A DNA stretch of 31,335 bases from a virus (lineage: Duplodnaviria > Caudoviricetes): positions 1 through 31,335 of the IMG/VR virus record IMGVR_UViG_3300027772_001143. The stretch is one strand, 5' to 3'. The position numbers and the translations under genes were made by a program. Shown piece after piece: positions 1 to 9,427 of the stretch (the stretch's first letter is position 1; every line of letters begins with the position of its first letter). The notes under the pieces were generated by a model. That model ran no database searches. It was not told the origin of the DNA and saw only the letters and a list, made by a program, of their open reading frames with translations.

Positions 1-71
1 ATATATGATTCTAAATCATTTCCATAATCACCACACATTCGCTTGAATAGGTTGGTAATTAATCGAATCAT
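1..71 (-). CDS. Hypothetical protein, N-terminal fragment (runs off the window edge)
   Basis: ATG at 71 overlaps the hsp20 TGA stop (ATGA coupling). The frame is open to the edge: MIRLITNLFKRMCGDYGNDLESY. Not in the ORF track. Confidence 0.55.
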   Translation of the reverse strand, partial: MIRLITNLFKRMCGDYGNDLESY

Positions 72-523
72 TTTTCAGCAGTTTCCTTGATGGTGATTTT
101 CTTAATGGCGTCTTGTACTTTGACCATATTTTCTAGCCAAATCCTAAGCATACCATTCATCATCTCTGCATCTTGAATTTCTACTTTATCTGCAAGAGTA
201 AAGGTGCGTTCAAATCCACGGTTGGCAATACCTTTGAATAGATATTCTTCCTCATCATCATCTTTAGCTGCAGCTTTAATTACGAGTTTATTACCCTCTA
301 AAGTCATCTCAATATCAGACTTAGCAAAACCAGCAACGGCCATCTCAATGACGTACTTGTTCTCTTTTATTTGTTTGATGTTGTATGGGGGATAAGTTAT
401 GGCTTTTGTTGCAGCGGCCGCAGCTGCTTCACGCATGAGTTCCATTGTGTCATTGAAACCAACAGTGAATGATTGAAATTTACCTAAATCGGTATTGAAC
501 AATTCTTTCATAAGATTTGTCAT
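68..523 (-). CDS. hsp20: Small heat shock protein (Hsp20/IbpA-like)
   Basis: Alpha-crystallin motifs YPPYNI, IEMAVAGF, YLFKGIANRGFERTFTL, AEMMNGMLRI. SD AGGAG 7 nt upstream. Confidence 0.95.
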   Translation of the reverse strand: MTNLMKELFNTDLGKFQSFTVGFNDTMELMREAAAAAATKAITYPPYNIKQIKENKYVIEMAVAGFAKSDIEMTLEGNKLVIKAAAKDDDEEEYLFKGIANRGFERTFTLADKVEIQDAEMMNGMLRIWLENMVKVQDAIKKITIKETAEK

Positions 524-690
524 AGTTTTCTCCTAAAAGCAAGATTAAAAATTGATACCCCGAAGGCGTATCGGTTGAGGTTCTGGTTACGGATTCCAGA
601 GACACCATATCGTTGTGCCCGATTTGATAACGCTCCTAAGGTAGGTGGAGCACCTTTTTTCCCATCCCAAGGGACTAGGACTATATCATA
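524..690 (-). promoter_or_regulatory. Structured 5' leader of hsp20 (several hairpins; ROSE-like SD-masking hairpin)
   Basis: Stems at 632-651, 601-619, 582-600 and 554-572 (C-UUCG-G loop), plus CUUGCU-uuu-AGGAG at 530-543. Confidence 0.6.
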
Positions 691-698
691 TATTTATA
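691..698 (-). promoter_or_regulatory. T4-type late (gp55-dependent) promoter TATAAATA upstream of the hsp20 leader
   Basis: Exact TATAAATA on the minus strand, overlapping the stop of the upstream gene. Confidence 0.75.
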
Positions 699-1725
699 CA
701 AAAGTAAAGAGACCGGCGGTGGTTAAAAGCAATATTGCCCAACTTACTAGTGCGGTATAGTAGGTTTTTAATGTTGTACCAAAATATCGGTTACCAATCA
801 TAACACACTTGTGAGTAGGACTCAATAGATAACCTGCATAGTCTACAGCAAAGAACCACATGAAGTATTCTACTCCAAAGACTTGAGCCATCAATACGGC
901 AATGGCAATAAACTTACCAGAACTACCCATTAGGAAACTCACAACAAATCCAGTAAGACTAATTAAAGCCATTCCAGTTAATGTATGTGGATCAAACATA
1001 CTGTTCTTGATGAATTCTACATACTCTGCATTATGCGACTTGAAGAAATTACCCAATACAATAACAACAGCTACTGTACCTAAAACATCCCAACTAATGT
1101 AACTCAGTAGTTTCTTGATGTTCCATTGTCTTGTTAAGAACACATAATATAAGGTCAATAATCCAAAGATTGTGAATACATTGCTTTCACCGCCAAGGTA
1201 TATGTAAGAACCGATTGCAACAATCATCGGAAAAACATTCCTGATGATTTCACTTATCTTAAAAGAATCAGAAGTTTCAATTACGATTTCTTCATCTTTA
1301 ATCTGCGTCCAAATGTAGGCAGAAATGAAAACAAAACTGACTACAAGTAGTGGTGCAATCATACCAATAAATGTTGCGTAGGTAAGACCAAAGACAGCGA
1401 TAGGAAGAACCACAGTCTTTTCCAAAGGTGACCACATATAATAGTGGTGTGTAGACAGATAATCTAATATACCCATCTTCTCACGACCATGGCCACATTT
1501 TGGTGCCACGGTGTCCAGTAGTCCAGCGGATACTGTTACTCTACCCTCAATCGGTAGTACACCACCAATTGCACTTAGTATAACGACAACAAATTTATTT
1601 GAACCAAAAGCTTTTTTGACATAAGAGTATGCTGACCCGAAAAGGTTATATTCTTTTGCAAGACCAGCAGACATCATAATAAAGAATATCATCCATAGAT
1701 ATCCTAATCCATTCAACAGTTCCAT
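694..1725 (-). CDS. Polytopic membrane protein, DUF401-like / ion transporter (IT) superfamily
   Basis: About 10 hydrophobic segments; motifs HHYYMWSPL and GYLLSPTHKC resemble DUF401. Start moved to ATG 1725 (MELLNG), which follows SD AAGGAG. Confidence 0.7.
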   Translation of the reverse strand: MELLNGLGYLWMIFFIMMSAGLAKEYNLFGSAYSYVKKAFGSNKFVVVILSAIGGVLPIEGRVTVSAGLLDTVAPKCGHGREKMGILDYLSTHHYYMWSPLEKTVVLPIAVFGLTYATFIGMIAPLLVVSFVFISAYIWTQIKDEEIVIETSDSFKISEIIRNVFPMIVAIGSYIYLGGESNVFTIFGLLTLYYVFLTRQWNIKKLLSYISWDVLGTVAVVIVLGNFFKSHNAEYVEFIKNSMFDPHTLTGMALISLTGFVVSFLMGSSGKFIAIAVLMAQVFGVEYFMWFFAVDYAGYLLSPTHKCVMIGNRYFGTTLKTYYTALVSWAILLLTTAGLFTFV

Positions 1726-1737
1726 AATTACCACTCC

Positions 1738-2145
1738 TTAATTATTATTTGGTTTTTTACCTATATTGTATTTTGGCACCAATTGCCATTCGTTCTTTTC
1801 TTTATGAGAAATGATTTTAATTTGTGATAAGAAAATAGGTTCTGGCACTTCAGTTTGTTTTGGATTTACCAGTTTGACCAATCCCCAATCTTCTAACAAG
1901 TTGGCAATAGCATTCCTACGAGCCAAGTCACTTTCTGAAATGTCTGTTAGTTTGCCATCTAGTGCAAATAGTTCTTTGAAATGTACCACATAGTATTGTC
2001 CACGTTTGTGGAGTATGTGGCATGATTGATATAGAATTTGTTCTTTTTTGGAAGCTACACCGATCCGTGTTAGTGTTTCACGTACCTTTAGAAAATCATC
2101 TTTTTCATTCAGTGTTACTTCAATTAGGTCATTAAGATTTACCAT
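1738..2145 (-). CDS. regA: RegA translational repressor
   Basis: DDFLKVRETLTRIG, LYQSCHILHKRGQYYVVHFKELFALDG, WQLVPKYNIG; position after gp62. Confidence 0.97.
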   Translation of the reverse strand: MVNLNDLIEVTLNEKDDFLKVRETLTRIGVASKKEQILYQSCHILHKRGQYYVVHFKELFALDGKLTDISESDLARRNAIANLLEDWGLVKLVNPKQTEVPEPIFLSQIKIISHKEKNEWQLVPKYNIGKKPNNN

Positions 2146-7033: not shown

Positions 7034-7055
7034 GCAACCTTGCGGTATACTTGTG

Positions 7056-8153
7056 TTAGGCACTAACAAATTTTAAAATGTTATTTGCCTGAACGGGTTT
7101 TGAATTAGTTGGTAATGATACCACATCAGTCTCTGTGGGTAATCCACCTTTTTTTGGATCCGGATTTTTATATTGTGGTAAAAATCCTTTTGCCTTATAT
7201 GGTAAAACATTGATAATTTCATCTAAGTCATGAGTGTGTCCTAATTTTTCCATAATAGTTTGAATCCATTCGGCTTCTTCTTTTACGGCGGTATTAAATA
7301 TTCTTATTGTGCTCACACGTTGTTGTTTCAATACTTCTGCATCACCACTAGCTTCAGGTATATAAAAATGAAATTCAATATCCTGAAAACCATGTTTCTT
7401 AATTAATTTCTTTGCATCACGAAAATTTGTGGTTGGATTTGCATAAGGAGGAATATATCCTAATTTACCTGATGAATTTAGATTTTCATCACCTTTACAA
7501 GCAATTTTTAATTTCTTTGCAGCATCCATCGTAGAGTTAACACCCTTTCGAGAGTGGTATGTCAATATGTTGGAAAAACTAGATTTGTTTTCTCTCACTT
7601 TTTTAAAAATGTTCTTACGCTCAGATACACTCTTATCGGCTGCTACTTCATCAATAAACCATTTGATTTCATCATCTGTATTTGAAATCTCTTTATATTC
7701 AATTGCTTGTAAAGTTTGAAAAATCAAATCTTCTTTGGTGTTAGGAGAACGAGGCGTTCTAATTAAATTGCTTTTATTTTTAGTTAATCTTTTAATTAAT
7801 GGTGTATCAAATTTATACACATCATACATCATTTCGTCAGAACCAAGTTCTTCAGCTGCAGCGTCCCGATTAAAACCGGATAAACCAAGATACATTCCTT
7901 TCCGGTTTTCATCTTCCATGACCATAGGAGGATATTCGGAATGTACCCAACCATTGACTAAAAATGAGGTTTTAAGATTTGTAACATCAGATTGAACAAC
8001 ATTCAATACTCGATTTTGATTTTCTAAAAGGTATACCACTTTATTCCTAGGTGCAATTATACGTCCAACAAACGTAGCACCTTTAGGCACATCAGGCCTC
8101 AATTCTGGTTTACACAATTCTTTAGAGAGAGATAAGTCAAATTTTAGTTTCAT
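7056..8153 (-). CDS. Hypothetical protein with a putative N-terminal ParB/Srx-like domain
   Basis: NQNR...V.NLKTSFLVNGW....PPMV...Y.GLSGFNRDAAAEELG resembles the ParB-N core. The C-terminal part is not recognised. Confidence 0.6.
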   Translation of the reverse strand: MKLKFDLSLSKELCKPELRPDVPKGATFVGRIIAPRNKVVYLLENQNRVLNVVQSDVTNLKTSFLVNGWVHSEYPPMVMEDENRKGMYLGLSGFNRDAAAEELGSDEMMYDVYKFDTPLIKRLTKNKSNLIRTPRSPNTKEDLIFQTLQAIEYKEISNTDDEIKWFIDEVAADKSVSERKNIFKKVRENKSSFSNILTYHSRKGVNSTMDAAKKLKIACKGDENLNSSGKLGYIPPYANPTTNFRDAKKLIKKHGFQDIEFHFYIPEASGDAEVLKQQRVSTIRIFNTAVKEEAEWIQTIMEKLGHTHDLDEIINVLPYKAKGFLPQYKNPDPKKGGLPTETDVVSLPTNSKPVQANNILKFVSA

Positions 8154-8155
8154 AA

Positions 8156-9427
8156 TTAACGTCCTACCTGTCCTAAATATTTTTCTTTAGTTTGGTTCCA
8201 ATCCATGAATATCAAATCATCGTAGAAAAGGTTTTCATAAGAAACGGTATTTTTCTTCTTTAACATTGATATCCGACCCTTAGCATACTTGGTTTTCCAA
8301 ATATTGGCAAGCGCCTGTTCACTGGTGTCAAAGGACTTTACCAGTTGTTCATCACCAATTTCTTTCCTAAGATAGTCATTGGTGTTATTGTACAGAGGAG
8401 AAAAGTAAATTCCCCTCTGATGTTCGGTACGAATAAGTTGTTTTGGAATCTCCAACTTACCATACGCAAAATTTAATGTACGGTTTTTGTGGTCACGCTT
8501 TAATGGAAGACCTTTTGGATTCTTGGCTTCCCACCATTCAAAGTAACGGCGTGTATGATTCTCTTTCACCCAATCATATACCATTCTCATGGTCTTTTTT
8601 GTAGGTTCAAAAGCAACCGAACCAGAACTGAAACCCATTTTGTTCCAATGTTCAAGACCGTCATACTGAGATAAACCACCAGACTTAGTATTCCCGTAAA
8701 GAGAAGTAGTTGTAACTCCAACAAGAACATCATCATACTGTCTTTTCCAATCGTTCTGTACAGTATCAGCAAGACATAACAATGCCAATAACTTACCACC
8801 CATATAGTTGAAACCTAAAGGCTGCAAAGGAACAATCGTGGAACCAATGGCCGTGTGATTAATCATACCTTGTTGTGTCTTGATATCTCTGGCCCATCCA
8901 ATCTCTTTATCTCTTGGAGTCAAATCCAAGAAGTCGGATGATATACAAATAACACCTAGGTACTTACCAGATGTTTCATCAACCACAGTGTAATAAAGAT
9001 TGCGACCAATATTAGAATTGTTTTTCATTGTGGATGAAAAGGTACGAATCGTATTCCATGTTTCAGCCAAATCACCATTGGATAATACCAAGGTCGGTTT
9101 CAATTTTTCGTAGTCATCTGTACCTTCAGGCATCCAGAAATTCTTTTTGACTTTATCAATGAGAGTCTGTTGGCCAATATCAATCAACTGATGGTCATCA
9201 CCAAATAATGTAGTGATAGTTCTAGTTGGATATTTCTCATGCACCTCACACCATTTCTGGTATAAGGTGTACTCTCGTACATCCATTTGAGATGCATAAG
9301 ATAAATCTTTGATGAGGGTTTCTTTTAGTGTATCAGTGTCAATGTGTTCAAATCTATCTGAAGTAAATTCATCGGACCATGTACGCCATTGTTCTTCTAC
9401 ATCAGGGATGTGCTTTTTGGTTGCCAT
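8156..9427 (-). CDS. DUF4338 / Druantia DruA-like protein
   Basis: GRNLYYTVVD...LGVI, PRDKEIGW, NYMGGKLLALL, TTTSLYG, SQY motifs recalled for DUF4338. Confidence 0.75.
   Translation of the reverse strand: MATKKHIPDVEEQWRTWSDEFTSDRFEHIDTDTLKETLIKDLSYASQMDVREYTLYQKWCEVHEKYPTRTITTLFGDDHQLIDIGQQTLIDKVKKNFWMPEGTDDYEKLKPTLVLSNGDLAETWNTIRTFSSTMKNNSNIGRNLYYTVVDETSGKYLGVICISSDFLDLTPRDKEIGWARDIKTQQGMINHTAIGSTIVPLQPLGFNYMGGKLLALLCLADTVQNDWKRQYDDVLVGVTTTSLYGNTKSGGLSQYDGLEHWNKMGFSSGSVAFEPTKKTMRMVYDWVKENHTRRYFEWWEAKNPKGLPLKRDHKNRTLNFAYGKLEIPKQLIRTEHQRGIYFSPLYNNTNDYLRKEIGDEQLVKSFDTSEQALANIWKTKYAKGRISMLKKKNTVSYENLFYDDLIFMDWNQTKEKYLGQVGR

Follow-up and report, generated by a model that had tools for sequence, protein, structure and literature searches.

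A conserved, structured RNA occupies the leader of hsp20 in a T4-like phage fragment, where a 170-nt non-coding gap (positions 524-693, GC 0.44) lies upstream of this gene on the minus strand of the window, i.e., the whole 31,335-nt stretch of DNA that was analyzed (IMG/VR record IMGVR_UViG_3300027772_001143). An earlier note on this sequence had proposed such an RNA; strong covariation in relatives bears this out, and the RNA has no match in Rfam. With about even confidence, the gap is read as a composite hsp20 5' leader and not as a single switch, in which a probable ROSE-like gate on translation is combined with a putative passenger small RNA. A bacterial-type ROSE element at this site would put heat (or chaperone) control on the translation of a core lake-phage gene, and the module found upstream of it, here named alpha, is an uncatalogued 48-nt motif with very clean covariation.

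Setting and modular architecture of the hsp20 leader

The window represents part of a T4-like phage genome, with clamp, clamp loader, regA, and head and tail genes (PHROG), and this phage has been detected in lake metatranscriptomes. Contigs from lake metatranscriptomes span the leader (X1, window positions 1-1086; X2, 401-659 and 630-1146), which, as assembled contigs, carry no information on ends, strand, or level. At 7052-8209, contigs from two RNA runs omit the 365-aa ORF located at 7056-8153 (1156 nt, with 55 other letters between), and a strain without this ORF is represented by these contigs. The Hsp20 of the window shares 37% identity with E. coli IbpA. The earlier note took regA to be the direct upstream neighbor of the gap, a place that is actually held by a DUF401 membrane-protein gene, with regA lying beyond it (Table 1). 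In most relatives, regA is found immediately upstream, together with TTGACA, at the place where the window has the DUF401 gene; the stop codon of the latter falls within the late promoter TATAAATA.

Table 1. Features of the hsp20 leader and neighboring genes (window coordinates).
Feature	Position	Strand	Description
hsp20 gene	68..523	-	151 aa; IbpA-like small heat-shock protein; PHROG 432 (E 9e-37); PF00011
ROSE-type hairpin II	529..544	-	UUGCU 542-538 facing SD AGGAG 534-530; predicted bulged G540
Hairpin I	554..572	-	5-bp outer stem, bulged G, CC/GG, UUCG tetraloop; YGCC..GGGU core as in ROSE_3 hairpin I
Module alpha	579..627	-	Two-hairpin pseudoknot: P1 GGCAC/GUGUC 619-615/605-601; P2 UCUGG/CCAGA 600-596/586-582; A-rich 5' end
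Alpha pseudoknot	C621-G620-G619 with C592-C591-G590	-	Loop of the second hairpin pairs back to the 5' strand
Module beta	632..651	-	GCUCC/GGAGC stem (651-647/636-632) enclosing conserved CCUUAGG; almost only in front of alpha
Alternative hairpin AGGUG/CACCU	643..655	-	One clade only; 25/72 window-type leaders
5' hairpin with conserved GAUGGG	660..680	-	From the fold; GAUGGG in 60/72 window-type leaders
Overlaid promoters	680..708	-	Sigma70-like TTTACT 708-703, TG, TATAGT 685-680; T4 late TATAAATA 698-691 in the spacer
DUF401 membrane-protein gene	694..1734	-	346 aa; PF04165; phrog_14035; between regA and the hsp20 promoter
regA translational repressor gene	1738..2145	-	phrog_242

Among the nine gaps of more than 40 nt in the ORF list, the hsp20 gap is the longest and the most GC-rich, as had been claimed, the others having 41-88 nt and a GC content of 0.16-0.40. 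The four stems described earlier, which belong to beta, alpha, and hairpin I, lie where they had been placed on the minus strand, and so does the late promoter. Five copies of TATAAATA are present in the window, all on the minus strand, compared with 2.85 expected by chance. A sigma70 promoter (a -35 box of at least 5/6 and a -10 box of at least 4/6 matching positions, 17 nt apart) surrounds TATAAATA in 20 of 40 distinct relatives; the sigma70-like promoter of the window is a weaker version of this design. Support for the structure comes from covariation among relatives and not from single-sequence folding energy, which was not beyond chance for either 546-690 (z -0.52) or 520-690 (z -0.46).

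Relatives were collected by protein search, in which 80 hsp20 loci gave 74 with a usable start and 50 distinct leaders. The order of promoter, 5' hairpin, beta, alpha, hairpin I, and Shine-Dalgarno (SD) hairpin is conserved but modular: in 10 of the 50 distinct relatives, the last two hairpins are the only ones behind the promoter, 61-79 nt from TATAAATA, and alpha also occurs without hsp20. The modules are thus gained and lost independently, and the proposal of one unit of about 165 nt does not hold. The range suggested for this unit (546-690) covers stems that are real, but leaves out the SD hairpin and overlooks the alpha pseudoknot; the idea of a multi-hairpin cis-regulatory leader was right in that a real covarying RNA is present, although its best-supported regulatory part, the ROSE-type hairpin, is located just beyond the claimed range.

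In the 5' part of the leader, the main stem of beta keeps at least 4/5 pairs in 71 of 72 distinct window-type leaders. An alpha-type loop motif, as detected by a loose regular expression, follows downstream in 83 of 86 window-type beta contexts, and the ROSE motif with SD and ATG in 77 of them. The mutually exclusive alternative pairing that had been considered as a sign of a switch can be drawn in the window sequence but is not conserved, as AGGUG/YACCU was found in 25 of the 72 window-type leaders, UCCUAG in 3, and both halves in 2, so that this pairing does not amount to the conserved mutually exclusive expression platform of a riboswitch. Three further candidates were rejected by eye: a leader uORF (AUG at 665), whose frame is not preserved in relatives; a long-range pairing between GGAGC of beta and the ROSE motif, which is part of the window MFE structure and fails in GAAUC-type relatives; and a CsrA site in the 5' hairpin, which is not conserved.

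A second optional module, also pseudoknotted and about 45 nt long with a CCUGG/CCAGG pairing, was observed between the 5' hairpin and beta (L028, L034-L036, L788-L816); it has 14 distinct contexts, including 12 in ROSE leaders and one (L810) elsewhere. A contig of RNA run X2 matches window 401-659 exactly before it passes into this module. In addition, the same leader type precedes a small ORF without family match in several relatives (L043, L045, L089, L101, L612, and others), and in some of these records hsp20 follows directly after it. No significant family was found for this small ORF in Pfam, PHROG, or NCBIfam; it may be phasin-like.

The probable ROSE-type unit next to the hsp20 start

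According to PMC3669281, PMC11182007, and PMC11342760, ROSE-like thermometers are defined by a U(U/C)GCU motif located just 5' of the SD in the 3'-proximal hairpin. This motif together with AGGAG was found upstream of 71 of 78 distinct hsp20 starts, which had been selected by protein; two of the 71 look like chance occurrences, and the seven starts without the motif lie directly behind a small upstream ORF (both judged by eye). Among the 38 genes of the window, only hsp20 has the motif. The leader combines three of the features by which ROSE-like elements are recognized, namely the 5' UTR of a small heat-shock gene, the motif near the SD, and a stable upstream hairpin (two to four hairpins). 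Counting against the ROSE reading, such a motif was present in only 2 of 28 hsp20 leaders of a sampled betaproteobacterial family.

Among 53 distinct copies, the five outer pairs of hairpin I are kept 50, 50, 50, 53, and 53 times, each in the form of several pair types, and inserts between the motif and the SD lengthen the stem beyond shuffles (35 pairs versus 18.8; 2 of 2000 shuffles); because the sets for both counts were selected by the motif, its own conservation there is by construction. Hairpin I was not called as an intrinsic terminator in the window, nor in any of 25 pattern-found beta contexts. An open Rfam scan placed ROSE_3 (RF02523) on exactly these two hairpins in two relatives, with 26.2 and 25.6 bits; none of the relatives scored reached its gathering cut-off of 43 bits, and the window gave no score against it. 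When one relative (L107) was aligned to ROSE_3, both hairpin cores proved to be common.

An imperfect pairing between motif and SD is possible in the window, and its stem extension covaries in relatives. The predicted probability of the ROSE register (ViennaRNA, nearest-neighbor models) is about 0.01 in the window (0.004-0.011) and exceeds 0.5 in approximately 40% of 134 relatives. The computed cost of opening the hsp20 SD is 4.2 kcal/mol at 25 C, compared with 0-6.2 kcal/mol for 11 other genes of the window, and falls from 4.5 to 3.3 kcal/mol between 10 and 37 C, which is similar to other genes. Given the absence of a window score, the low register probability, and the ordinary opening energy, the 3' unit, as judged from its sequence, resembles a short ROSE element by layout and is not a filed member of RF02523.

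The literature searched contains no earlier account of alpha, and none of ROSE elements in phages; the supplement of PMC5737381 and the sequences of PMC10690425 lay outside this comparison and may hold the motifs. Supplementary file 5 of PMC10690425 contains 19 unnamed DNAVirus candidate structures within 25 bp of HSP20 genes, to which the main text assigns no function or ROSE link; DNAVirus_1086 in this study is 62 nt long and has 18 freshwater members. Therefore, the 3' unit has probably been catalogued there without a name, as likened by position and length and not by sequence, and alpha may also have been catalogued without a name.

It is probable that the weak pairing between motif and SD gates hsp20 translation by heat. 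Transcription would start at the late and/or sigma70-like promoter near 686-673, the pairing would hide the ribosome site when cold and open it on warming, and binding of Hsp20 to its own leader might assist this gate. A different and improbable explanation is that the 3' hairpins serve mainly for self-repression by Hsp20, as in the case of E. coli IbpA acting on its own 5' UTR, and not for melting by heat. Lake temperatures are far below those at which classic ROSE elements melt, which counts for self-repression, and the equivalents of R93 and R97 of IbpA are Arg in all 36 distinct phage Hsp20s matched, with Y34 also aligned in the Hsp20 of the window. According to PMC10474464, IbpA represses via a thermometer-type UTR; however, the same study reports that K98A abolished repression by E. 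coli IbpA, and this position is non-cationic (T, A, Q, or V) in 36 of 36 phage Hsp20s. Moreover, the same leader type also serves a different small ORF. Gating by heat is retained here as the preferred reading of the 3' unit.

Structure and distribution of module alpha

Module alpha is a 48-nt RNA consisting of two adjacent hairpins and a single 3-bp pseudoknot, and all three of its helices covary, as does hairpin I. In an alignment of 65 pattern-found copies (A1), double changes were observed in 4 of 4 pairs of P1. A pattern-free set was also built from regions obtained via the beta motif, the pstS protein, or the hsp20 protein, in which 163 of 231 distinct regions were parsed to give 118 distinct cores. 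The parser imposed no condition on the central pair of the pseudoknot, yet this pair is Watson-Crick in all 118 cores (G-C 77, U-A 34, C-G 4, and A-U 3), compared with a mean of 60 and a maximum of 75 in a shuffled control. A third alignment (A3) comprises 63 copies, i.e., 62 of the 118 cores hand-picked for diversity and the window in place of the identical L001; it has double changes at 12 of 14 pairs, where slid controls fail, with the reading that all these covariation counts refer to related sequences and not to independent events, so that kinship inflates them. When no condition was set on loop sequence, 116 of 159 regions could be parsed (43 could not), and the loop A, GUAA, and the 5' C were invariant in all 116. 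The covariance model R2 gives the alpha of the window 60.7 bits, the window being part of its training set.

An Rfam scan, which the earlier note had suggested as a check, returned no match for the window at gathering level, and only three chance fragments appeared over 450-780 at E ≤10. Nothing in Rfam overlapped alpha in phage, bacterial, or plasmid loci, and GOLLD, ROOL, and Y RNA did not lie at alpha. The COG2908 RNA (RF02939), suggested by the neighboring genes, was considered as a candidate and rejected, as none of 55 records, the majority of them containing alpha, gave a match over the cut-off or at alpha.

In viruses, 77 distinct alpha contexts were found by pattern, with a loose descriptor that admitted a few doubtful copies; 25 of them have beta, and 24 of these lead to the ROSE motif. 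The 52 copies without beta include 28 at most 12 nt away from a stop codon and 29 that lie ahead of a terminator, many copies ending 0-5 nt before it. At loci of the phosphate-uptake gene pstS, which were found by protein, alpha is present in 45 of 78, always on the sense strand and at or near the stop codon; these include 24 distinct copies with double changes in 5 of 9 pairs, some of the contigs having also fed the model. Although alpha is mostly single-copy, one genome (G032) has two copies within a cluster of pstS, LpxH-like, glycosyltransferase, and porin genes. Large lake phages (L083-L199, L331, L340) were observed to have a cluster of genes for pstS, LpxH-like phosphoesterase, glycosyltransferase, and OprO-P porin. 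We take the pstS/LpxH-like cluster to resemble phosphate-starvation lipid-remodeling genes, and COG2908 to be the family of the LpxH-like genes that often follow alpha.

The suggestion that alpha is restricted to phages (72 of 100 viral and 6 of 117 cellular pattern matches complete; 4/100 loci) was overturned by model R2, which has matches in 20 of the 151 genomes examined from the family that includes a Sphaerotilus MAG. The cellular copies had first been missed because the bacterial CCGG stem falls outside the pattern. When the 20 family matches were inspected, 11 proved to have a same-strand tRNA 4-39 nt downstream and two to lie before rtcB, whereas L781 and L782 are coding false positives and L778 looks phage-derived. 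In tRNA arrays, alpha begins 34-40 nt past the upstream tRNA. At the order level, three weak matches that look coding or partial were found in 151 genomes, and at the phylum level alpha was found in 0 of 151. It is present on megaplasmids and in cultured phages: tRNA arrays on plasmids of Variovorax RA8 and Polaromonas P1-6 contain alpha with an RNA-ligase or HNH gene nearby, the jumbo phage RsoM2USA has a copy of 92% identity 4 nt before tRNA-Phe, and four Burkholderia phages, including the lessivirus BcepIL02, have it as well. Because every named carrier of alpha is a Burkholderiales bacterium or a phage infecting one, a betaproteobacterial host is hinted at for the window phage. In Anabaena, long tRNA arrays with rtcB and HNH neighbors are induced by translational stress, according to PMC8421152.

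Several additional features were observed around alpha. A conserved ORF of about 125 aa without Pfam match lies divergently 440-1300 nt upstream in 12 of the 20 bacterial matches and is a candidate regulator of the array (L732-L741, L777, L779, L784), and a conserved AGCUCACGCU hairpin is found upstream of alpha in many bacterial loci. In BcepIL02 (L785, 2500-2950), alpha marks the beginning of 450 nt of GC-rich sequence located upstream of ssb; this stretch has no annotated gene on the same strand and no Rfam match, and is possibly a longer ncRNA. In four other loci (L092, L106, L128, and L193), the P2 hairpin of alpha occurs alone inside a longer conserved non-coding stretch, again without Rfam match.

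Possible roles of alpha and relation to known systems

The reading placed first, tentatively and with somewhat less than even confidence, is that alpha is a passenger small RNA released from stress-abundant transcripts and acting on a host protein. Alpha would then not be a sensor for hsp20 but would ride along in the leader and be cut out to work independently. It is placed in non-coding sequence, at pstS 3' ends, in long tRNA arrays, and in rtcB and hsp20 leaders, and the transcripts concerned probably reach high levels during stress. Its 3' end might be made by a terminator or by RNase P cleavage at the next tRNA, and the released RNA may bind a host protein via the invariant A-rich 5' end and the G-U loop bases, serving as a decoy or modulator. 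All contexts of alpha are compatible with a small RNA embedded in a non-coding section of an abundant transcript. A function as sensor for the next gene fits poorly with the copies that stand between two tRNAs or ahead of a terminator. Within hsp20 leaders, the tight coupling of alpha with beta and the ROSE unit speaks for some role in cis.

It is also possible, though unlikely, that alpha is a cis-acting stability or processing barrier, i.e., a compact knot that halts exonucleases entering the upstream message from its 3' end or designates a cleavage site between units transcribed together. Such a barrier would account for the constant sense orientation of alpha, its start at the pstS stop codon, and its position right before many terminators, but fits poorly with tRNA arrays, where alpha lies between tRNAs that need no such guard. 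A terminator hairpin behind alpha, where present, already protects the 3' end, and the invariant loop and 5' bases suggest a specific contact. The passenger reading covers these sites as well as the arrays.

Rather improbable is a control of read-through, in which alpha (with beta) binds a ligand or the polymerase as a riboswitch aptamer or as an antiterminator RNA of the kind known from HK022 put. Two adjacent hairpins with invariant unpaired bases would suit this function, and so would the location directly before terminators (29/52 copies) and before LpxH-like metallophosphoesterase genes. However, no conserved overlap between alpha and the terminator stem was seen by eye, alpha stands mid-array among tRNAs and not near a promoter, the genes downstream of it have no common pathway, and the 5' switch is not conserved.

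There is little likelihood that alpha belongs to an undescribed class of small self-cleaving ribozymes and serves to separate co-transcribed RNAs. Its neighbors include tRNA arrays, RtcB, and an annotated RNA ligase, and tRNA-linked ribozymes do exist in phages, as described in PMC10879173; in the same study, HDV-like and theta ribozymes are characterized by a nested double pseudoknot with a catalytic C in J4/2, whereas the covariation-supported fold of alpha has a different topology. Furthermore, the distance of alpha from the upstream tRNA places its start away from the tRNA 3' end, and no Rfam ribozyme model matches it.

Finally, it is very improbable that alpha mimics the anticodon loop of tRNA-Thr (N-G-U), with an N-C-N codon of its own as the pairing partner, and acts on ThrRS or an anticodon nuclease, for which the thrS operator is a precedent: the four loop variants do read CGU, AGU, GGU, and UGU, the loop G and U are invariant although the partner of this U pairs in only 93 of 118 cores, and alpha fills slots of tRNA arrays, but the loop has 9 and not 7 nt, GU is followed by A, G, or C in bacterial copies, the pseudoknot buries the 'anticodon', and ARAGORN calls no tRNA in the window.

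Beyond the passenger reading itself, a broader proposal is put forward with more reserve, namely that alpha founds a new class of pseudoknotted RNA common to betaproteobacterial stress tRNA arrays and rtcB operons and to the phages of these bacteria. After release from these arrays, from pstS 3' ends, and from hsp20 leaders, it may act on the translation or RNA-damage machinery of the host, either as a decoy or as a self-cleaving element, and lake T4-like phages may have stacked it before a captured ROSE thermometer. The slot of alpha in stress-type tRNA arrays near RNA ligases bears on what else these arrays and phage tRNA clusters deliver, and its function is directly testable because the carriers include cultured phages as well as culturable Variovorax and Polaromonas.

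Among known systems, the COG2908 RNA motif (RF02939) is similar to alpha in size, having 45 positions, and is named for the gene family often found behind alpha, but its consensus and fold differ. The theta (HDV-like) ribozymes, as presented in PMC10879173, are likewise small pseudoknotted RNAs beside phage tRNA genes; in contrast, the two hairpins of alpha are combined with only one pseudoknot of 3 bp, and its position is 5' of the following tRNA rather than at a tRNA 3' end. Phage RNA thermometers include lambda cIII, the SPbeta blyA fourU, and a sigma70 fourU (PMC11182007 and PMC4166951), with which the hsp20 leader would share the control of phage translation by temperature through a 5' UTR; none of them is described in the passages considered as ROSE-type or as preceding a phage hsp20. 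The 3' unit is likened to the ROSE_3 element of Pseudomonas ibpA (RF02523; PMC3669281), which also occupies about 60 nt before a small heat-shock gene and has two hairpins. The window unit differs from it in belonging to a lytic T4-like phage with a late/sigma70 rather than a sigma32 promoter, in the extra upstream modules of the phage leader, and in an upper stem of only 2 bp, whereas the alignment of the relative L107 shows the YGCC..GGGU core in hairpin I and, in hairpin II, U(U/C)GCU facing the SD with a predicted bulged G.
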